A program made the translations under genes and the position numbers. From a virus (Duplodnaviria > Caudoviricetes): a stretch of 64,000 nucleotides of DNA. The notes below the pieces were generated by a model. That model was not told where the DNA came from. It was given only the letters and a program-made list of their open reading frames with translations, and did not search any database. Location: the IMG/VR virus record IMGVR_UViG_3300032030_000020, positions 68,670 to 132,669 of that record; one strand, 5' to 3'. This document shows, one piece after another, positions 15,001 to 64,000 of this stretch. Numbering within the stretch: position 1 is the first letter of the stretch; each line of letters opens with the position of its first letter.

Positions 15001-18000
15001 CTGAGTAAAATATCAATGGTTTCTTTGAAGTTGTTGGCATCTTCAAGGTATTCGTCCAGCTTTTCTCTTTGATAATCAAGGTTATCGTCAATGGATTTAA
15101 TCTGATCGTCAAGCATTTCAGCCTGAGCATTTGCTTCGTCTTCTGCTAAAGACAACGCCCTGTTCTGCTGCAGTTCCTGAATCCGTTTACGGAGTTCTTT
15201 TGCTTCCTTGGTTCTGGAACTGTCTGCAGAGATAAGCGCTAATTGCCGCTGAAGTTCTGCCAGTTCTTCAGTCTGACGTTCTTCTTCAAGGGCTTTCTTC
15301 CGCATTTGAAGCCGTTCGTTAATCAATCCCTTTTCTTCGTTCAGCGCTTCTTTTTGCTTGTTGAGATCTCTCTCGTATAACTCAAAACGATTCCGATAAG
15401 AATTCCTGAGAATTTCGAGAATCTGGTTCTGGTTCGAAGTTGTACCTGCCAGCATATCTCTTTCTTCTTGAATTCTTTTTCTGATCTCTTCATCCACCAT
15501 GTCTTCCACGGCTTTGCGGTTTTCAAGAATCTGCTTCCTGTTTTCCGACATCGCCTTGGTGTTGCTCTCAACAGTGTTGGTTGTTTCTTCGAGTTCCTTC
15601 TCGTACTTCATAATTGCCGAAGCAATTCTCCAGTACTCGTCTCCGCCTTCCGCTACGGTTGTAAGCTCGGCTTCGAGCTCTTCGATGAACAACCTTAAGG
15701 TATCAGCGCGGGTTTCCTGAATCTCATTTTCGCTGGCAAGGATTGTATTGACATTAGTCAATTCATCCCTGTTCTGATACCGTGTTCTTACGGTTGTGTA
15801 CATGTCTGCGCGATGGTTCTGCATCTCATCCACTCTGGACATGCGTTCGAGCATTTCATCAATTTCCATGCTCTTGATCTGCTTGTCGAGTTTGATGAGT
15901 TCATAGTCCATTTCCGCAACAGACATTGCAGAGTCATAGATCTGTTTTTCGAGTTTTTCGAAAGCGTCTGTGTTCTCCGGGGTTGTCTTAGCCAACTCTC
16001 GAAGTGTATCAATTTCACTGATTTCATATTCTTGTTTTGCTTTAATCGCTTCTTTTTGTCTCTCTATTGCTTTGGTATACATCTCGCTGTCTTTGTTCTC
16101 AGAATAATACTGAGACAGCATGGACGCTACCTTAATCTCACGGTCGAAGCTGTCGATCATCTTCTGCCGTGCCTTTAGCGTGGAATCTACTTTGGAATTT
16201 GCAATGTCAATCAACGCCTGAATATCATCAGCTTCAAGCCGGACGTATTCATTCTGACGTGTATAAATCTCCTGTACAACTCTGTCGTACTGAGATGTTC
16301 CCCTTGTATTTTCAAGCTCTGCCTGCAGAGATTCTATCTCTTTCTGAATTGCTTCACGAACAGGCTTTCTGTCTTCCATCTGCGTTTCCAGCATGTTCTG
16401 ATACAAGTCGTAGAACATGGTACTGTTATACATTCCCGCATAGATACCGGCCTTTTCAATGTTGTGTAACGGCCCGCGAGAAGCATCTTCGTAGGTCTTT
16501 ACAATTTCATCGATAACGGCTTTTTTGATAGCTTCAGCCGCTTCTTCCATAGAGATCTTGAGCTTCTGAAGTGCAGCCTGATATTCGTACAGGCGCTGTG
16601 TAGCTTCCTGCCATTCAGGAGAACCTTCTTCCAGTCCGGCGATCTGCTTTTTAAGCTCCTTAATTGCTTCTTCGTAAACGGGAACCATTTGCTGAGAAGC
16701 TTGTAACTGCTGATTTAACGCGCCCCTTTGCGCCGCATAGTTGCCAATCGAACCGTAGCGAGACGCCCATTGCCCGTAAACATCGTTCAGGAAGTTTGGA
16801 CGAAGCGTGCCAAGGTTGACATTCATCGCCGTCTCATCAAGATACGACTTGTTTATGGCCCGTTCATTGGATTCCATTGTGGCCTGAAGGCTTGCGTTGT
16901 TGGTAATCAGCTGATACAGCCTCTGAATCGCTGCAGACTGTTGTTGCGGATCAGTAATCTCTCTGTTTTGAAGCTGCTGTGTAAGCGTATCGATTTCAAT
17001 TTTGTTGTTTCGATACGTTGTACGGTTTGCGTCATTCCCGGCTTTTAACATGCCACGATAACCTTCCCAGTCTCCTGCCTGCTGCGACATAGACGCATAG
17101 GTGTTAGCTAACTGAGCGTTCGTTGTGGATGCAAGGTTTGCACGGGTTGTAGCAAGATCAAGCTGAGCCATACGGTTGGCTTCGATTGCTTTGGTGTTCT
17201 CTTCGATGGCTTTTGTGTCGCTGAGAATCGCAATCTCTTCTTTGTTAATCTCATCGATGGTTTGCCTAAGAAGCTTTGGATTATCTCTGTATTCATCTAA
17301 TTCTTCTTTGAGTGCTTCGATATGCTTTTTACGGGCTTCGATGCTCTTGTTTAATTGAACTTCGTTATTGCCGAGAAGCCTACGATAGTTCTCAAAGTCT
17401 TCGCGGTTAAGATAGATTGCTCCAGCCGCCTGATTGACAGCCATTGCCTGATCGATCCACCGCCTGGTATCGTTATTGTCTTCAGTAATCTTGGTATGCC
17501 TTGCCGCTTCTTCGTTGAAGCGATCCTGAATTGCGGCAGAGACTTCGTCCGAATACTGTTTGATAATATTCTGATACTCTTTAATCGCTTTATCTTTAAC
17601 TTCTTCGGATATCCAAGGATTATCTTCATCGTGCGACATGATTTCTTCGTAGAGCTCATTGGCAGCATCTCTCAGTGTCGCAATAGTAGTTGCTCTCTGT
17701 GCGTAGCTTGTTGCATAAGCTTCGGCTTGAAGATCGTACTCGCTTGTCTTGCCATATGTTCCGGCGTAAGAGTTTGCGAGGTTGATGCTTCCGTTGGCCG
17801 CACGGTTCCTTTCATTGATATCAAACAGTACTTTCTGCCTTGTAATATCCTGATACTCAGAGATCTTATCGAAGATTTCCTTTGCTTTTTGAGCGTCGGA
17901 TTTCATCAGCTCGGCAAGATTCTGATATGCATCCATATAGGACTCGACTTCCGTGAAGAAAGCTTCGCCCATTTCATCTGTGACATACTGAATCATACTG

Positions 18001-30000: not shown

Positions 30001-33000
30001 TTGTTATCTTCATCGCTAAACAAAGATTGTACTAAACGCTCAATCGGCTTTCTTGTTTTTATTGCGTCGAGTGCCTTACCGGATGCTTGCGCGACTTGCA
30101 TGTCACTGTGTTTAATTAAATCAATAGCGTCGGCATATGTTTGGTTTGCGTATGCATCGACTATTCCAGCATCTTCATCGCTTAAATCTTGAGTTCTTCC
30201 GACAACTTGCCCCGCTTTGTATCCTAAACCCACGCCCCCGGTCGTAGTTTCTTGTTCAACGTTTGACGCTTCTGCGAAACTTGCACCATTTCTTGTCCCG
30301 CGCGTTTCTCCGCCTATCATTTTTTGGAGATCTTTGGCGGTTTCTCGTTCTTTCTCAATGGACTTCATGGCTTGTTGCGCATACCGATTTCTTTTCTCTG
30401 TTCTTTTTTTGAAGTCATCATCCGTTGCAAGAGCGTGGTACAACCATATAAAGTCCCCATCAAAGTCGCCAGTGTTAAGACTGTATAAGTCTTCGATGTT
30501 CATAACTGCAGCATCTGGAGACAATCCATATCTTTCTGCTGCCTTTTGCCTTCTTTGAATCGTGGCAAAGAAATTTGAACCGGCAGCATAAGGACTTCTT
30601 GTAGCGTTTGTTAAATCTTTGGTGCTTCCTCTTTGTGTAATAATTGTTCCGGTTTTTGCTTTCAGTTTTGCTGCCTCGCCTTGAGCATCGTGTCCTGTTA
30701 AATAATTTCCAACCGGATTCCATAAACTATAGGGGTTTGGTGTTGCGACAAGCATATCGGCTGGAAGCATAGCGTAGCCGCGAAGTGATTTTTCTTGCAG
30801 ATCTCTTTTTGCTCTCTGAATTTTGAATTGTATTCCACGATCAGTGTAAAGAAGGGAACTATCTTGTTGCACTCTTTTTGAATCCCTATCGTTTCCAGAA
30901 AAAAGGTAATCGATAATTCCTTCAGGAGTAGACAGTTTTTGAATTGCTTCTCGATAATTTGCTTCGGACCGTTTCATCATTTCAGGTGTGACAACAACTG
31001 AAGACATATAAGCAGGTGACCAGAATTGCTTCTTACCATAGAAACCCTCGGTATCTTTCATCAGTCGGAAACCAAAATCATATGCTGGGTTACCAGATTC
31101 ATTGAATAACTCATTTACCTGATCGGCAGTCAATGTGACAGCAGATCTGTTACTTTTAGAAGATCTGTTTTTGATCGCTGTTTTTTGATCTTCCGTTAAT
31201 CTGCTAAAGGCCGAATTGGAATTGCTCTTTGTAAGTGTTTCGGATATACTAAGAAACTCTTCCGGAGAAAGATGACTTAACGCACCTATGGATTTCACAG
31301 CGGTTTCATCGACAAGCATTTCGACGTCATCTCTCATGACGTCCACCATTCTACGATCTCGTAATTCTCTAAATTCAGCTAACTCGTCTTCTGTTAAATT
31401 GCGACGTCTATTGTTTAGCTCTTTGTATCTTGCAACTTGAGCAGCCGTTGTTCCTTGTCCAGCCATAAAAAAGTGAAGATTGTCATCGCCTTCAAACTCT
31501 TTATCTCTATAAGCGAATCCCGCATCTTCTAAGAACTTTCTCCAATCCTGATGAATTGCAAGAAATTTTGCGGGGCCCATTCTTGCCTGAACATCCTTAG
31601 AGTATGTTCTGTCATCAATTAATGCTCCGCCATCGAAACGAAATCTTTTTTCGAACTCTTGTTGCGTTTCTTTTTCGATTGCATCGTAAAACGACTTAAA
31701 ACTCACAACTGCAGCGCGCGGCGTTTTTCCTCCCAATTCCTCGATCGGAACAGAGTTTGAAAGCATTTTAGATTGATTAGAAAAATATTTTGCGTATTGT
31801 TTTACGCCTTCTTCTGAATATGGATCTATTGCCTTACCAGTTTTAGGATCTATCAGTAAATTGTTTTCGTCCGTTTCACTAAAATAAGAAAGCATTGGAA
31901 TGATCCCACGGGCTTTATCTTGCTTGATAAGAGCATCGTAGACATCTTTTCGGATCATCTTCATGCTTCCGCCGCCGGTTACGTTGGACACAGCTTTAAC
32001 ATATTCAAGATCTCCTTGATTTTCTGTACTAAGCGTTACAACGGCACCTTGATTAACTTGATCTATTAAATTTGCGTTGTCTCCGGCGAAATATGCTTTT
32101 CTTTGAGTCTTTCCTTTTAAATCTTTTTCTTCTTTGAATTTAACGTTTCCGTGCTCATCGTGTTCTCTAAAGTAATCAAGAGGCACATCGATGATCATCG
32201 GAGCGCCTTTTTTCGGAAGATTTTTTTCATCGAAGCCGTATCCAAAACTCCAATCTTCAAACTTGGCTCCGGGAGTCAATCTAATAATTCGATCTAACAG
32301 AGGGTTTCTCCCCATCGTAATCCATTCATCGTTTACGTCTTGAAATATGCCGTTTTGCTTTCTCCAATTATAATCTAATAAATGAGGATCAATATTATTC
32401 TGTCTCGGCGTTTGGACTGTAAATCGAAGTTTTCCGCCTTCATTTTGAATTGCCATACGTGGAATATTGATCATTGCAGAATTATTTAGTTTTTGAGTAA
32501 CATGTTCTTCGTCTTCGTATCGTAATCCTTGTGGGATTTGCCAGCCCTCTTTAATATATGGCATCGCGTCCGGCCTTCGATCTAACCACATTAATGTTTG
32601 AGCTTCTCTGTTTCTTTTGCTATCATTTCTCACGATAGCAGATTGATAATCAAAGTCATCAAATCTGCGGATGTATTGCGGGGCGCCTTGAGAAGCCCTT
32701 CTGGCTTTCTGAGCAACATATCCACCAAACTGATCTAATAGTGCGCCGTTGGCATCCGCAATATCGATATATTTATATTTTCCGCCGTTAACCTGTCGAA
32801 CAAGACCAGATTTGATTGCGGCTTCAAAAGCAACAGAGTTTCCTGATTCTATTTCATCTCTTATAGCGCGATAAAATTCTTCTTCCGTCGCCCTGTTGCT
32901 TGCTGGCAATTTGGGAGTTGGTTTGTCTGATTTTATTATGCGTCCACCGGACAAATAAGACGCTTTATATCTATCTGGAGCGTTATCTGTGACAATAACT

Positions 33001-55978: not shown

Positions 55979-58771
55979 ATGAAGGAACAGATCATGGAGA
56001 CAAAAGCGCAGGCCCTGTACGGTACTCTGAAGCTGAAGATGGCGGAACTGGAGACCGCCAAGGAAACACTGACCAAACTGACTGCTGACCGTCAGCCCGG
56101 AGAACATGGTGCCCGCCGGTCTATCCGCCGCGCAGAGAAGGAGCTGGAAGCGGCTCAGGCTGCTTACAACGACGCTTACAAAGCCTACAAAGCGGAGAAC
56201 TCCGCCGCGTGGGCTGAGTATAAGAACGAGAAGGAGGACAAGAAGATGAACGACACTGGACTTCAGAAGATCGACAGATATGTCGTGGCTGAAAGCAAGA
56301 CGGAGGAGATCACGATCTTCTCCAGCGCTGCCACCCGGCATATCATCGAGATGGGCCATGCTGTGAGAGACAGCGTGGTCAAGATCAAGTCGGAGTGCAA
56401 GGACACTCTGGCTATGGACTATGCCCACGCGGAAATGGTGCATTATTGCGCCAAGGGCTTCAGCAAGGACGGAAAGCGGTTCGTTCCGCTGATCGTGGCC
56501 GCGTCCGACCATCGGAAGGCGACAGCCACATGGATGGATGACCAGATCGCCGCCGCCTACTGGAAGTGGTCGATGTGCGGACTGACCCTGCCGGAGATCT
56601 CCGGGAAGATCGCCGTCAATAAGTATATGGCGTATCAGGGTCTCATGTGGTCGGCTTCCAAGAAGTTCAAGGAAGTGTTCGGCATCGAAATCGACCCGGC
56701 CCGAATCGCCGTGGTGAAGGACGGCTTCGTCGAAGTCACCGGCATCATGGACGTGGTGCACGACGACGGCACGGTCGAACACGCCGTGGAACGCACGATT
56801 ACGATCAATGCGTTCGACGGGCAGGGTTCAATGAGAGCTACCCTGTCCAGTGGTGAGTCCGTGACCATCCGGGCTCCGTGGATGAAGGCATTCGTGCAGG
56901 CCTGCAACTGGGATGAAGTGATTGAATACTTCACGAAGGTAAAGGGCGATACTAAGATCCAGACCATCTACGGAGAGAAGGACCTGCAGGACATCGATAT
57001 CGTCCTGACGGTGTCCTGCTTCAAGGCCGCCAAGCTGTACGACTCTTGGGAGAAGTACGAGAAGGCTTTCCGTGAACTGGGACACGAAGTCTGCGTCTGT
57101 GTCCGGGAGCATCAGCCGAAGCTGAAGGGCATGCCCTATCAGCAGGGACAGACGCTGCAGGGAACGGACGAAGACGTTGAGAAGTTCGCTCAGCACAGCC
57201 TGATGACTGTCTCCAAGTACGAGAACCAGAAGGAAGCTGTGAAGCTCCTTCGTGGGTATCACAGGGCTGCGGCAAAGCTGTATCCGGCCATGATGAAGGA
57301 AGGATACACCGCCCGGACCATGCAGGAGAAGTACACTTCTCTGAAGATGGAAATGCTCGGTGGCCGCATCCCGGAACTTGGCTACAATGCCTTCGGTGCA
57401 GCTGACATCAAAGCGTTCTGGGAACACGTGGCTGGACAGCCGATCGTTGGCTGCCTGAAGGCCGGTGAGTGCAGCCTGCTCCTGCATAAGGAAGGGCTGA
57501 CCGACGTGACGCGGTCTCCGCATCTGGACAACGCCCACGTTCTTCTGTACAACGTACGGAAGATGCCGTTCGTACCGGAGAAGAGCCCGACACTCTTCGT
57601 GAACATCTGGGATCTGACCACCATTCAGCTCAGGTGTGACTACGACGGCGACCACTTCTGGTACAGCCAGAACGCCAATCTGCTTGATCTGATTAAGAGG
57701 ACGTATGAAGTCCTGAAGAACCTGCCGATCGACTGGGAGGCACCGGAATCCACGAAAGGTGTCATCAACAGGACGACGATCAGCGAGTTCGTGTCCAACC
57801 TGCTGAAGGGCAGCGAAATCGGCCTGTATGCCGATGCACTGACCAAGATGTGGGCGAACGGCTATAATCATGACGTCTGCTGCTGGCTGACCTATGCTGG
57901 CAACGTGCTGATCGATGCCGCAAAGCACGGTAACGTAAAGATCGAGAAGCCGGACGCTGTGAAGGCCGTGGACTCAATGTCTCTGCCTGAGTTCTGCATG
58001 TACGCGAAAGCAGACAAAGAGCATCCCGCCGGTTCCAAGTACTGGACGGAAGAGCGCTTCGTCTGCGTCGACGAGCAGAAGCACAAGAAGACCGTGTATG
58101 CTTCCGAGTACAACGAGAAGAAGCACGGCACGATCAAGACCGTGCTGAAGCCCCGGACGCAGTACTCTGGCAGCTTCCTCGACAAATTCAGCCGCCGTGT
58201 GAAGGCACTCGTGCCCGACACTCTGGTGGTGAATGGGCTGGACGAGGAGATCTTCGACGTCACAGTCATGCTGATTAACCCGAAGCGGATAATCGGCAAG
58301 CTGGCTGGCCTGTCCAAGAAGGCGTCCAGCTACAACGACACCACCGGAAAGTACGAGGATGAGGGTGGCCTGTTCCAGCAGATCGCCTTCCGTCAGTCTG
58401 CCGAGTGGAAGGAACTCATCAACTACGACGAGTTCAAACTCGACTACAAGGCGTGGGAAGACGCCAAGGCCGAGTCCGCCCGTCAGGAGATGATCGCATG
58501 GGCTCGGGCGAAGTACGAAGGCAACGCCGTTGTCGCGGGGTACAGCGATGAGCAGATTCTGGAAGGAATCTACGACATCGTAACCCGCAACATGTTCGGA
58601 CCGGCCAAAGTATCCGATGGATACGACACGGTCGTGAAGAGCGCCTACTGGCGGATCTTCGGCAAGATGGCCTGCGACGTCATCGCCGACAATCTGGGTG
58701 AAGAAGCCCTGAGCTTCGACCCCCGGCTGGACGACGACCTCGGCGATGTCGATGGCGCCGAAGACTGCTAA
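55979..58771 (+). CDS. Single-subunit two-barrel RNA polymerase, YonO/QDE-1-like
   Basis: F-D280-G-Q-G; I-R298-APWM-K303; R512-S-P-H; C-D554-Y-D-G-D; C-terminal IGxxxD...IDAAKHG motifs typical of this family. Confidence 0.88.
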   Translation: MKEQIMETKAQALYGTLKLKMAELETAKETLTKLTADRQPGEHGARRSIRRAEKELEAAQAAYNDAYKAYKAENSAAWAEYKNEKEDKKMNDTGLQKIDRYVVAESKTEEITIFSSAATRHIIEMGHAVRDSVVKIKSECKDTLAMDYAHAEMVHYCAKGFSKDGKRFVPLIVAASDHRKATATWMDDQIAAAYWKWSMCGLTLPEISGKIAVNKYMAYQGLMWSASKKFKEVFGIEIDPARIAVVKDGFVEVTGIMDVVHDDGTVEHAVERTITINAFDGQGSMRATLSSGESVTIRAPWMKAFVQACNWDEVIEYFTKVKGDTKIQTIYGEKDLQDIDIVLTVSCFKAAKLYDSWEKYEKAFRELGHEVCVCVREHQPKLKGMPYQQGQTLQGTDEDVEKFAQHSLMTVSKYENQKEAVKLLRGYHRAAAKLYPAMMKEGYTARTMQEKYTSLKMEMLGGRIPELGYNAFGAADIKAFWEHVAGQPIVGCLKAGECSLLLHKEGLTDVTRSPHLDNAHVLLYNVRKMPFVPEKSPTLFVNIWDLTTIQLRCDYDGDHFWYSQNANLLDLIKRTYEVLKNLPIDWEAPESTKGVINRTTISEFVSNLLKGSEIGLYADALTKMWANGYNHDVCCWLTYAGNVLIDAAKHGNVKIEKPDAVKAVDSMSLPEFCMYAKADKEHPAGSKYWTEERFVCVDEQKHKKTVYASEYNEKKHGTIKTVLKPRTQYSGSFLDKFSRRVKALVPDTLVVNGLDEEIFDVTVMLINPKRIIGKLAGLSKKASSYNDTTGKYEDEGGLFQQIAFRQSAEWKELINYDEFKLDYKAWEDAKAESARQEMIAWARAKYEGNAVVAGYSDEQILEGIYDIVTRNMFGPAKVSDGYDTVVKSAYWRIFGKMACDVIADNLGEEALSFDPRLDDDLGDVDGAEDC

Positions 58772-60824: not shown

Positions 60825-61023
60825 TCACGGAATGAATAAGTCCGTCAAGACAATCTATCAGAACCAATTTCAGGTCATCGGTTATCCGCCTTGGCTAAGT
60901 AAATGTCAGTTCGAAACCTTAACCGAGGCCGAGAACGAAATTCGTAACTTGCACTTTACCAACGCAATGAAAGTCACCACGACCGTCCGCCGTGTTGTTG
61001 TGCGGACACCGAAAGGAGAATAA
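60811..61023 (+). CDS. Hypothetical protein
   Basis: AGGAGG RBS; 70 aa. Confidence 0.6.
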   Translation: MTVTNHGMNKSVKTIYQNQFQVIGYPPWLSKCQFETLTEAENEIRNLHFTNAMKVTTTVRRVVVRTPKGE

Positions 61024-61025
61024 AA

Positions 61026-61541
61026 ATGCGTAAGGTTATTCTGAATAAGTGCTTTGGAGGGTATAGCTTCAGCCCAGAGTTTATAGCTGAGTATCTGGAG
61101 CGCACCGGAGCCAAGAACGTCACGTACCAAAAGACCGTCTATGCCAAACTCGGAGAACGGGAAGACATCCCGATGACAAGAGACCAGTTTGTCGAGCACA
61201 GTGCTGGTTTCGACGCATACGCTTGTGTGGACGGCGAGCGTTTCGAAGACCGCGATATCGAACGTGATGATCCTGTTGCTGTTGAAATTCTGGAAGAACT
61301 GGGCTCTAAGGCTTGCTCCGGCCGTTACGCATTACTTGGAATCGAGAAGTACAACGAGACCAAGTATGCTGCCCGCATCGAGGAGTACGACGGCGACGAA
61401 ACCCTTGTTCTGACCCGCCTGCTCACCCCTGACATGATCCGCGAATGCAAGAGCACGGACGAAATTATTGATCTTCTGACAGAGGTCAATGCTTTTGTTA
61501 CGCCGGATAAAGATTGTTTCACAAGAGATGTTTCACTTTGA
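61026..61541 (+). CDS. Conserved phage hypothetical protein
   Basis: KVILNKCFGGYSFS...RDDP...EELG...EEYDGDE pattern; RBS present. Confidence 0.75.
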   Translation: MRKVILNKCFGGYSFSPEFIAEYLERTGAKNVTYQKTVYAKLGEREDIPMTRDQFVEHSAGFDAYACVDGERFEDRDIERDDPVAVEILEELGSKACSGRYALLGIEKYNETKYAARIEEYDGDETLVLTRLLTPDMIRECKSTDEIIDLLTEVNAFVTPDKDCFTRDVSL

Positions 61542-61603
61542 GTCAGCCCGCTTACGCTGGCTAAATGCTTATGCGGTTTGTCCGCACAGAAAGGAGAATC
61601 ACA

Positions 61604-62047
61604 ATGGAACTCATGCCTGTAACTATCTCTACGGATGGGGCCTGCTCCGGTAATCCCGGCCCCGGTGGATACGCCGCTATCCTGCGGTTCGGCAACAAAT
61701 TCAAGGAGCTCTCCGGTTACGAGTCTCAGACGACCAACAACCGGATGGAGCTTCGGGCTGTCATTGAATCCATTGCGATTCTGAAGAAGCCCTGCCGCAT
61801 TTTGGTTCGCACAGACTCCACAATGGTCTGCAACGCTATCGACAATCTCGACTCTATGCCGGACAGGGGTTGGAAGACCAGAACCGGCGCAAGAAGAGCT
61901 AACTGCGATCTCCTTCAGAAACTCTATAAGATCAAGCAGGATGGACATCACACCCTGCAATTTGAGCATGTGAAAGGTCACAGCCTTGATCCCGATAACG
62001 AACGCTGCGATCTTCTTGCAAGAGCGGAGATTGCGAGGCACGTATGA
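61604..62047 (+). CDS. rnhA: Ribonuclease HI
   Basis: TDGACSGNPGPGG, TTNNRMELRA, TDS, HVKGH, NERCDLLA. Confidence 0.95.
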   Translation: MELMPVTISTDGACSGNPGPGGYAAILRFGNKFKELSGYESQTTNNRMELRAVIESIAILKKPCRILVRTDSTMVCNAIDNLDSMPDRGWKTRTGARRANCDLLQKLYKIKQDGHHTLQFEHVKGHSLDPDNERCDLLARAEIARHV

Positions 62048-62075
62048 TCTACGAAAGAAAGAGGACTCGCAAAGC

Positions 62076-62321
62076 ATGATTAGTACAAGAGAGATCTACG
62101 AGGCCGCGAGATCAACCTTTATTATGGATTATAACTATCAGCGCAAACAGGTTCAAAAAATGAACAGAAAGGCAAACGCCGATATCGAACATGCGGCACA
62201 GTGGAGAACCCTGGCAACGATTTTTGATACGCTTGCGGATGTGACCTATGACAAAATCTTGTATGTCACGGAAGAAATAAAGCGCATTGCAGAGGAGGGA
62301 GATCATGAATCTCGGATGTGA
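62076..62321 (+). CDS. Hypothetical protein
   Basis: GAGG RBS before ATG 62076. Confidence 0.6.
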   Translation: MISTREIYEAARSTFIMDYNYQRKQVQKMNRKANADIEHAAQWRTLATIFDTLADVTYDKILYVTEEIKRIAEEGDHESRM

Positions 62322-62487
62322 ACCGAGAACGACATACGAATGCTTCGAGCCTGATCCCAGCGATGAGTTCTACGATCAGATGTGTACAGCCGCCTATTCA
62401 CGATTGTTTTCTGAAGGAGTTGATTACAGTGCCCAAGACTGTACGGAATACGATTCTTGCGACATCAGCCTTGATCGGGCTGGTTGA
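62305..62487 (+). CDS. Small acidic Cys-containing hypothetical protein
   Basis: GAGGAGG RBS before ATG 62305. Confidence 0.5.
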   Translation: MNLGCEPRTTYECFEPDPSDEFYDQMCTAAYSRLFSEGVDYSAQDCTEYDSCDISLDRAG

Positions 62488-62517
62488 CCTTGTGATGGCC
62501 GTCATCCTGTTGGTGAG

Positions 62518-62760
62518 GTGATCCCTATGGTCAACGTATGGGCGATGTCACCCAATGGAAAGAAAAGCTTACTATGCGAGCCGGATACGAAAGTACCGGC
62601 CGTTTTTAGTGAGGATGACGCATGGGCCTTCATTACGAAGGTCATGCGCATGGACAACGCGCCACGTTTTATGTGGACAAAGGAGGTACCTGATGCTGGA
62701 TGCCCTGATTATCTTGGTGATGAACATTCTGACCTTCACGGCCGGGATGCTGATTGCTAA
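62518..62760 (+). CDS. Hypothetical protein
   Basis: GAGGTG RBS-like sequence; true start may be ATG 62527. Confidence 0.5.
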   Translation: MIPMVNVWAMSPNGKKSLLCEPDTKVPAVFSEDDAWAFITKVMRMDNAPRFMWTKEVPDAGCPDYLGDEHSDLHGRDADC

Positions 62761-62998
62761 CTACTACAACGACAAAGCTGAGCGCGAGAAGAAGGACGCG
62801 CTCGAAAGGCAGTTCGTCCGGCTCCGTTGCAAGATGGATGCCGATGACCCCTGCAAACCCTACGTCTCCCGTTTGGCCCCGCTCAACACTGGTGACTTCG
62901 ACGGCGATAGAGGGCCCATTACCGAAGAGTTCATGAAGAACTTGAAGGAAAACGGCTCAGCCAAAACGTCGTTCCGTAAGTCCGACATTGCTAAATAA
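62693..62998 (+). CDS. Small membrane-anchored protein containing LNTGDFDGD
   Basis: AAGGAGGT RBS; N-terminal hydrophobic helix; 101 aa. Confidence 0.7.
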   Translation: MLDALIILVMNILTFTAGMLIANYYNDKAEREKKDALERQFVRLRCKMDADDPCKPYVSRLAPLNTGDFDGDRGPITEEFMKNLKENGSAKTSFRKSDIAK

Positions 62999-63148
62999 CC
63001 GCCCTGGCGGGCTGGTTGATGCTTATGAGTCATACGTCGGTTGGCTCCGCGATCTCAAATCCGACGCGCCGCTGTGGACTGGCGTTAACCACGGTCGTCT
63101 CTTTACAACCCCACAACACAAAATATTGATTATTTGGAGGTATTAATT

Positions 63149-63526
63149 ATGACTATTTCTGTGATTGGTAACATTGGTAACGGTGCGGAACTGCGTACGG
63201 TCAACGTCAATGGCGTGGAGACTTCTGTTTGCTCCTTCTGGATGGCTGAGAACTTCAAGAAGCGGGACGGCAGCACCAAGACCACTTGGCACAAGGTGAC
63301 CGTCTGGCGGAAGTACGCCGAAGTGATGGCGCAGTACCTGACCAAGGGCCGGAAGATCCTGGTGACGGCTGAGAACGCCGAGGCCAAGACCTATACCGAC
63401 AAGGAGAACCGCATCCGCCCGTACATCGACATTCAGGCCAGCAAGATCGAACTGCTGGACGGCAAGAAGCCGGAGGAGACTGAGCCCGAAGTCGAAGTCG
63501 AGGATGAGAGCACCCCTTGGGATTAA
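63149..63526 (+). CDS. ssb: Single-stranded DNA-binding protein
   Basis: IGNIG...ELR...TTWHKVTVW...YLTKGRKILV; acidic tail ending PWD. Confidence 0.92.
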   Translation: MTISVIGNIGNGAELRTVNVNGVETSVCSFWMAENFKKRDGSTKTTWHKVTVWRKYAEVMAQYLTKGRKILVTAENAEAKTYTDKENRIRPYIDIQASKIELLDGKKPEETEPEVEVEDESTPWD

Positions 63527-63541
63527 TTTTGTAAAGAAAGA

Positions 63542-63576
63542 AGCGGTCGGCTAAAGATAGTCGGCCGCTCTTTTTT
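63542..63576 (+). terminator. Intrinsic terminator between convergent genes
   Basis: AGCGGTCGGCTA-loop-TAGTCGGCCGCT followed by T6. Confidence 0.75.
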
Positions 63577-63889
63577 AATGTCTGCTATAGTTGCGAATCA
63601 GCATAAGTGGCTCTTCACCGTGAGACTCGAAGACGTCTTTCTCGATGTGCCAGCGCGAGTTTCCGATGCGCTTTAGCAATCCAGCATCCTGAGCCGCCTT
63701 CATTGCATGGACGACTGCCGTGTAACTTGTTCCTGCCCCTCTGGAAATCTCATCGTACGAACCGTTGAAGTAATAACTCTTTGGGTCTGTACGCTCCAGA
63801 ACGTAGAAGATGATTCTCAGCCGACAGGTATCAACATTGACCGCTTCGGCCATCTTTACAAAGTCATTCGTTGTCATCATGCTCGTCAC
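63575..63889 (-). CDS. Winged-HTH DNA-binding protein (RepL-like)
   Basis: SYDEISRGAGTSYTAVVHAMKAAQDAGLLKRIG HTH-wing pattern. Confidence 0.6.
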   Translation of the reverse strand: MTSMMTTNDFVKMAEAVNVDTCRLRIIFYVLERTDPKSYYFNGSYDEISRGAGTSYTAVVHAMKAAQDAGLLKRIGNSRWHIEKDVFESHGEEPLMLIRNYSRH

Positions 63890-64000
63890 CTTCTTCCATG
63901 TAGATCTCGTGAACTCTTCTCAGCAGGTCCGACAACTCATCATCTTCTCTCCGCTGTTCCCTTTGCAGTGACTTTTCACTGACCGGCAATCTAGAGTACT

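Follow-up and report, generated by a model that had tools for sequence, protein, structure and literature searches.

The 64,000-nucleotide stretch of phage DNA considered here (the window; positions 68,670 to 132,669 of the Caudoviricetes record IMGVR_UViG_3300032030_000020 in IMG/VR) encodes a 101-amino-acid membrane protein (P0001; 62693-62998, + strand), residues 64-72 of which read LNTGDFDGD (62882-62908, +) and are identical to the catalytic loop of the phage's own predicted virion RNA polymerase (30453-30479, − strand; residues 1105-1113 of a 7242-amino-acid open reading frame, ORF). The small protein is a conserved, uncharacterised bitopic membrane protein of a replication-gene string, without a named family. 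With a confidence that falls a little short of even, its motif is taken here to be an accessory one, acidic in nature and serving metal chelation or docking, on a protein that acts as a membrane tether for the replication module. To judge from the homologues, selection keeps the Asp/Gly skeleton of the motif, while the exact identity to the polymerase is not maintained and the rest drifts or is lost.

An earlier, sequence-only reading of this DNA had reported the exact copy at these two sites, six of nine codons differing silently and unrelated flanks, all of which were confirmed. The two coding stretches agree at 21 of 27 bases, and the six mismatches are all synonymous third-position changes, in the codons for L, G, F, D, G and D. 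Across the whole 132,669-bp virus record, no second word of six or more residues is common to the small protein and any ORF of at least 80 amino acids, and the unrelated 5-mers that it has in common with other ORFs number five, which is the background level. The DxDGD pattern occurs among the real proteins of this 132.7-kb genome only in two RNA polymerases and in the small protein, and the back-translated 7-mer TGDFDGD was found in 53 contigs of approximately 2.9 million in IMG/VR. Given this rarity and the lack of any other shared word of six or more residues in the genome, the nine-residue match is unlikely to have arisen by chance. Profile-profile comparison (hhalign) of the motif-bearing small proteins with the polymerase segment returned a probability of 88%, which fell to 0.1-0.3% once the motif was masked on either side, and the members of the family that have no motif scored 0.1%. 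Because masking abolishes the match, the likeness of the small protein to the polymerase resides in the motif alone, and a captured or folded polymerase module was rejected on the same ground. The residues GDFDGD (67-72) conform to the D-x-D-G-D metal-binding loop of the two-barrel RNA polymerases; a double-psi beta-barrel was not found around them, the surrounding segment being disordered and devoid of strands in the AlphaFold model and its flanks not homologous.

The polymerase bearing the other copy forms the N-terminal part of the 7242-amino-acid protein (12063-33791, −), a predicted two-barrel RNA polymerase fused to a tape measure. The DFDGD region (loop at residue 1109) precedes the tape measure within a single ORF, the middle third of which is identified as tape measure by PF10145, downstream of the loop, and by ten tape-measure PHROGs. 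A local alignment (E = 1e-3) also connects the loop region with the T-R-S-P ... D-Y-D-G-D stretch in a second polymerase of the phage, a free-standing YonO/RdRP-like protein of 930 amino acids (55979-58771, +; PF05183 at 29.9 bits, above threshold; loop RCDYDGD at 57638-57652). For gp96 of the Thermus phage P23-45 (PMC10770324), which has a DFDGD site and a non-virion polymerase as its counterpart, the status of a tape-measure-fused virion polymerase has been validated by experiment, and the authors of the P23-45 work propose that the tape-measure polymerase acts at the membrane pore. The gp96/gp64 pair resembles the present arrangement, in which a DFDGD polymerase at the N-terminus of a giant tape measure is accompanied by a second, free-standing DYDGD polymerase, but P23-45 has no small motif-bearing membrane protein and its giant protein is 5002 rather than 7242 amino acids long. 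Considering the alignment to the 930-amino-acid polymerase, the PF10145 tape measure and the gp96 precedent, the label of virion RNA polymerase catalytic loop used in the sequence-only reading is reasonable, and the giant protein is probably a new member of the tape-measure-fused virion polymerase kind. An exhaustive HMMER search recovered ten giant or fragmentary homologues of the virion polymerase (31-43% identity; giant homologues 5-6.6 thousand amino acids long), all ten of which carry LNTGDFDGDF, and a second giant-polymerase subfamily in IMG/VR carries (Q/M)NTGDFDGD(T/V). Sequence searches of the PDB with both polymerase regions gave no match, the solved gp96 structures included, a single-sequence search of viral contigs gave no relatives of the 930-amino-acid polymerase, and the polymerase region found only one match in the near-length range of the word-indexed protein database.

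Homologues of the small protein were collected by a word-indexed protein search (34) and a metagenome scan (36 loci), which together yielded 58 distinct sequences of at least 80 amino acids. The motif is present in 30 of them, as GDFDGD (15), GDYDGD (9), GDTDGD (2), GDPDGD (2) or in degenerate form (two). Conservation among homologues, on which the earlier reading had staked its claim, thus holds in part: the Asp/Gly skeleton of G-D-x-D-G-D is essentially invariant where it occurs, but 28 of the 58 sequences, those of the outgroup included, are without it. In the 29 regular motifs, D1, D3 and D5 are found without exception and G4 in 28, and the middle residue is F (15), Y (10), T (2) or P (2). 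The residues past D5 vary (G6 in 10 of 29, I, L or V at position 8 in 16, E12 in five), and the skeleton is that of the polymerase-type D-x-D-G-D and not that of an EF-hand. The residue before G-D is mostly T, which follows an N in 13 of the 15 F forms and never does so in a Y form, and the residues leading up to G-D drift, with N, P, A and K all seen. The commonest form is the exact 8-mer NTGDFDGD (13 sequences), identical to the invariant 8-mer of the polymerase, and a leading L is confined to the window phage and its nearest relative.

A maximum-likelihood tree places the motif-less sequences of the outgroup clade apart from a main, motif-bearing clade whose basal branches carry NTGDFDGD, and the presence or absence of the motif on this tree requires at least five gains or losses. 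Near-identical backbones bear different motif cassettes (P0008 versus P0023), and one cassette is found in distant backbones (L017 and P0023). In a related sheep-gut contig, 245 nt of window 62820-63066, comprising the 3′ half of the small gene and the spacer that follows it, are replaced by 231 unrelated letters; the junction lies just past the codons for the conserved A-L-E-R-Q-F-V-R-L, a placement suggestive of cassette exchange there. Since cassettes swap between backbones, the 3′ half can be replaced and at least five motif changes have occurred, the linker that holds the motif is, on sequence evidence, best described as a recombining, facultative module.

This pattern of change within a linker that acts as an exchangeable cassette could accommodate an ancient capture, in which an ancestral small gene would have acquired a copy of some 24-27 nt of the polymerase gene in its linker and retained it in a new role unrelated to the polymerase. 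The absence of the motif from the outgroup clade and its presence on the basal branches of the main clade would fit a single gain, and the basal forms equal the polymerase 8-mer. Such a capture is nonetheless improbable, as no protein-profile similarity extends beyond the motif and no mechanism for copying 24 nt is evident, and the DNA, differing at six of nine codons, retains no trace of a copy event. Pure coincidence, whereby a neutral acidic stretch happened to equal the polymerase loop in one genome, would draw on the very many windows scanned, among which rare 9-mer matches are expected somewhere, and on the leading L peculiar to this phage and its nearest relative. It is very hard to credit when 29 motif bearers with approximately 50% identity elsewhere all retain the Asp/Gly skeleton unchanged, within a variable and unconserved proline-rich linker, when no other 6-mer is shared in the genome, and when the sole difference listed inside the motif among related strains is synonymous (62908 T>C).

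Co-variation of the motif with the polymerase loop, which the sequence-only reading had looked for in each genome, was not borne out. Both genes were readable in four genomes, the window and three others, and only the window (G000) pairs identical sequences, LNTGDFDGD with LNTGDFDGD. The 76-kb ENA scaffold_309 combines the polymerase loop MNTGDFDGDT with the small-protein motif PKGDTDGD, and the small proteins of IMG/VR G008 and G001, the polymerase loops of which read MNTGDFDGDT and GGGDVDGD, respectively, have no motif, so that three of the four pairs are discordant. The loop LNTGDFDGDF, being invariant in 10 of 10 family representatives, cannot co-vary with anything, while the motif of the small protein drifts. 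Co-variation with the nearby 930-amino-acid polymerase was likewise rejected, since the window and L005/L102 share RCDYDGD in that polymerase despite their different small-protein motifs.

The N-terminal transmembrane helix ascribed to the small protein was confirmed. Residues 4-23 (62702-62761, +) are hydrophobic (mean Kyte-Doolittle 2.3 in the best 19-amino-acid window), and the AlphaFold model, built on a 35-row alignment, shows a helix over residues 2-45 (pLDDT above 89), a disordered stretch over 46-77 and a short helix over 78-87 (62924-62953, +) that gives way to a basic tail, with no folded domain. The pLDDT is below 50 over residues 62-73, which span the motif. Conserved blocks comprise a juxtamembrane A-L-E-R-Q-F-V-R-L-R helix, a D-A-D-D-P-x-K-P-Y block (residues 49-57; 62837-62863, +) in which the columns D49, A50, D51, D52, P53, P56 and Y57 are invariant or nearly so, and a C-terminal F-M-x-x-L-K-x-N-G-x-A-K-T-S-F-R-K-S in which F80, L84, G88, A90 and K96 are conserved. 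Lysine and arginine average 0.17 before the membrane helix and 3.7 after it across the 58 homologues, and this enrichment, by the positive-inside rule, predicts a cytoplasmic tail, the bias pointing the same way in 53 of them.

The reading frame is under purifying selection: among related-strain contigs from sheep and goat gut metagenomes, the kind of sample from which this DNA itself derives, 18 of the 19 differences listed inside the small gene fall at third codon positions. That the frame might not be translated, an outcome which the sequence-only reading had named as fatal to its proposal, is therefore unlikely. The gene call is further supported by the ORF and its translation, by the homologues and by a Shine-Dalgarno sequence (AAGGAGG; 62680-62686, +) read 6 nt upstream of the ATG. 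No credible family for the protein was found in Pfam, PHROGs or the protein Atlas, and megablast of positions 61000-64000 against deposited phages gave no match. The only tblastn matches were weak (E = 0.04-7) and fell in Certrevirus-type phages, on membrane proteins encoded amid the tail-fibre genes, and these were rejected as relatives, the similarity being judged that of the helix only.

On the explanation tentatively preferred here, a fixed core made up of the N-terminal membrane helix running into the juxtamembrane helix, the DADDP-x-K-P-Y block, and the C-terminal amphipathic helix with its basic tail would tether or organise components of replication or early infection at the membrane. 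Between that block and the C-terminal helix, the variable, proline-rich and disordered linker would present G-D-x-D-G-D in about half of the family, in the same three-aspartate arrangement as that of Mg2+ chelation in two-barrel RNA polymerases, and the motif may act as an optional divalent-cation-dependent or acidic docking site at the membrane surface for some putative partner. A possible functional model is p16.7 of phage phi29, an integral membrane protein that organises phage DNA replication via the terminal protein and single-stranded DNA (PMC4974454). Both are small early/middle proteins with an N-terminal anchor, a helical stalk and a cytoplasmic tail (here predicted), encoded among replication genes, but in the present protein only a 10-residue C-terminal helix is predicted, with no folded domain for binding DNA or terminal protein and no sequence relatedness, and the resemblance would thus be functional only. 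As for the motif itself, the loops of two-barrel polymerases (NADFDGD of beta-prime, DFDGD of P23-45 gp96, DxDGD of YonO and RdRP) have the same D-x-D-G-D skeleton; they differ in that the small-protein motif is dispensable in half of its family, admits T or P as its middle residue and is not set in a barrel.

Several observations weigh against this explanation. The full polymerase 8-mer is the form of the motif seen most often and occupies the basal branches of the motif-bearing clade, and pure convergence on a metal loop would leave its N and T unpredicted, since other polymerases chelate Mg2+ with NADFDGD, GGGDVDGD or RCDYDGD. The occurrence of TGDYDGD in unrelated proteins of two phages with NTGDFDGD polymerases, described below, suggests a link to that polymerase lineage. 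Furthermore, neither p16.7 nor any named family in Pfam, PHROGs or the Atlas resembles the small protein in sequence, and the motif does not satisfy the definition of an EF-hand. The unrelated DxDxD metal-binding loop that the sequence-only reading had offered as its alternative has accordingly fared unevenly, being better suited to the variable middle residue than is mimicry, but leaving the N and T of NTGDFDGD without a reason.

A different metal site was also considered, namely an extracytoplasmic Ca2+-binding DxDGD(G) loop of the EF-hand-like or FG-GAP type, belonging to a lysis or superinfection-exclusion protein whose tail would lie outside the cell. Like EF-hand and FG-GAP calcium loops, the motif has three alternating Asp residues with Gly, the sequence GDFDGDG is common in FG-GAP-type repeats (examples among the IMG/VR matches are L052, L061 and L072), and 10 of the 29 motifs continue with G. 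The region of the membrane helix weakly matches Rz-like spanin and holin models (E = 0.01-0.02). However, the positive-inside rule puts the tail inside the cell, a predicted location that argues against a calcium site, and the gene belongs to a replication string and not to a lysis cassette. Of the EF-hand features, Asp at positions 1, 3 and 5 is present in 29 of 29 motifs, but Gly at 6 and Glu at 12 are not conserved, a hydrophobic residue at 8 is seen in 16 of 29 only, and of the flanking helices the entering one is missing; no EF-hand Pfam match appeared up to E = 5. The profile of an Rz-like i-spanin is not borne by the family either, phrog_1152 matching at E = 0.012-0.02 in 5 of 35 members and only over the membrane helix region. 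A search for an Rz1-like partner found no lipobox or Cys-bearing ORF in either alternative frame of the small gene, an embedded Rz1-like ORF was accordingly rejected, and the neighbouring genes, for an RNase H and a single-stranded DNA-binding protein (SSB), supply no lipoprotein partner. The calcium-loop interpretation is, in sum, a poor prospect. The acidic tips of SSB proteins (D-D-D-I/L-P-F type) provide a further comparison, in that they are similarly acidic and aromatic in composition and the small gene adjoins that of the SSB; the window protein departs from them in having its motif internal and its C-terminus basic.

The proposal with which the sequence-only reading began, that of an active-site mimic or decoy, envisages a membrane-anchored tail that displays the loop peptide of the virion polymerase in the role of decoy, competitor or regulator. 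It would be aimed either at the polymerase itself or at some factor by which this peptide is recognised, for instance while the tape-measure polymerase, newly ejected and perhaps still unfolded, is associated with the pore. The catalytic loop is buried in folded polymerases, which counts against such recognition, and DFDGD is also found in cellular RNA polymerases, those of the host among them, making a sensor decoy based on DFDGD alone awkward. The proposal is consistent with the exact 9-mer in the window genome, with the exact 8-mer as the commonest form on the basal branches of the motif-bearing clade, and with the placement of the motif in a disordered, accessible linker. It also agrees with the location at the membrane pore that the authors of the P23-45 study propose for the tape-measure polymerase, where a membrane-anchored tail would sit; P23-45 itself, however, has no such extra protein. 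The discordance of three of the four genome pairs, with no co-variation, speaks against it, as do a middle T or P unlike any polymerase loop seen in this analysis and the lack of the motif from half of the family, some of these members belonging to NTGDFDGD-polymerase phages. Mimicry, then, has kept in its favour the prevalence of NTGDFDGD and lost the support that full conservation and co-variation would have given; it appears rather unlikely, but stays alive because the basal and commonest form is the polymerase 8-mer and because related phages hold copies at second sites.

These second-site copies emerged when the giant-polymerase phages were scanned for G-D-x-D-G-D and IMG/VR for TGDYDGD, of which 43 stretches occur among the approximately 2.9 million contigs. 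Two contigs with NTGDFDGD giant polymerases, G006 and G009, also have TGDYDGD in unrelated proteins. In G006 (107.9 kb; loop QNTGDFDGDV), the SSB gene is immediately preceded by an acidic coding region (L112:1432-1640, −; approximately 10.27-10.48 kb of IMG/VR 3300031867_000020), one frame of which ends in D-L-N-T-G-D-Y-D-G-D-E-L-L ... E-L-P-F, an ELPF terminus like that of SSB acidic tips. The motif-bearing frame is without a ribosome-binding site of its own and has no homologues in the protein database, both of which detract from its value as evidence for mimicry. A hyper-acidic ORF of 36 amino acids with a good ribosome-binding site ends there at GAC-TGA-C, and the +1 frame continues into the LNTGDYDGD segment; the junction may reflect +1 frameshifting, an indel introduced in assembly or the meeting of two overlapping ORFs, and the product would, from its composition, resemble an SSB tail or a DNA mimic. 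In G009 (loop MNTGDFDGDT), a Lys/Glu-rich coiled-coil protein of 288 amino acids is encoded just upstream of the giant polymerase/tape-measure gene (L127:141-1007, −; IMG/VR 3300031994_002872) and contains S-D-T-G-D-Y-D-G-D-D-F-E, followed by an amphipathic, basic C-terminus (K-I-G-F-F-R-K-L-F-G) which we take to resemble a MinD-type membrane-targeting helix. No close relatives of this protein or of the G006 SSB were found among viral contigs.

By a rough estimate, the overlap of TGDFDGD and TGDYDGD contigs expected by chance is approximately 1e-3 by contig count and at most approximately 1e-2 when length is allowed for, and two were observed besides the window genome. On this account the motif looks like a portable linear motif favoured in the NTGDFDGD-polymerase phage lineage. 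A broader form of the mimicry proposal would be that tape-measure-polymerase phages have repeatedly evolved accessory proteins, membrane-anchored, membrane-targeted or SSB-adjacent, that show TGD(F/Y)DGD as a disordered decoy, competitor or regulator motif, and this generalisation is regarded as doubtful.

Experimental proof of tape-measure-fused virion polymerases dates only from 2024, and to our knowledge nothing is known of their control after entry into the cell. With its gene between those for RNase H and SSB, the conserved membrane protein offers a concrete handle on control of the injected polymerase. Should the motif serve only to bind metal or to dock a partner, what results is the modest gain of annotating a new family of small proteins in ruminant-gut phages; were the mimic true, it would represent a new regulatory or counter-defence principle, an undescribed self-mimicry in the control of phage transcription.

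The small gene is embedded in a string that begins upstream with RNase H (61565-62047, +; PF00075, E = 1e-31) and continues directly downstream with SSB (63149-63526, +; PF00436), the C-terminus of which in the window is T-P-W-D. All loci of sufficient length preserve the order RNase H, two tiny ORFs, small gene, SSB; RNase H is found upstream in the same order in L005, L006, L099 and L102, and SSB follows the small gene in 29 of 29 such loci. A terminator-like hairpin with a T-run (63542-63569, +; 12-pair stem), identified by consensus scan only, would close the unit of RNase H, small protein and SSB. An additional GC-rich hairpin, CCGCC-CTG-GCGGG, without a T-run (63000-63016, +), comes right after the stop codon of the small gene, within the 150 nt that separate this gene from SSB. 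An upstream ORF of 77 amino acids (62527-62760, +) shares its last 68 nt with the start of the small gene, and its homologue in L005 ends just past a conserved F-M-W-x-K-E block. Natural variants in the overlap obey the frame of the small gene, and the last 20 or so codons of the 77-amino-acid ORF therefore look unconstrained.

Among the relatives, a different type of free-standing polymerase with the loop R-Q-D-G-D-V-D-G-D-E is encoded 3-4.5 kb upstream of the small gene in the more distant G001 (position 101536; L113) and G008 (position 15094; L114), and a DNA-level match that would code for GDVDGD is in the same position in G002 (position 78680; L160). G001 also has a split YonO-like gene at 134-137 kb. 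The tail module of relatives is interrupted by GIY-YIG/NUMOD endonuclease genes. Their late regions (L101, L102 and L104) give Pfam matches to YomX_C, YOMG_N, YonB, YonG_N and YomU_Tube, names that derive from the Bacillus phage SPbeta, and there are hints in these sequences of an SPbeta-like ancestry and a Bacillota host.

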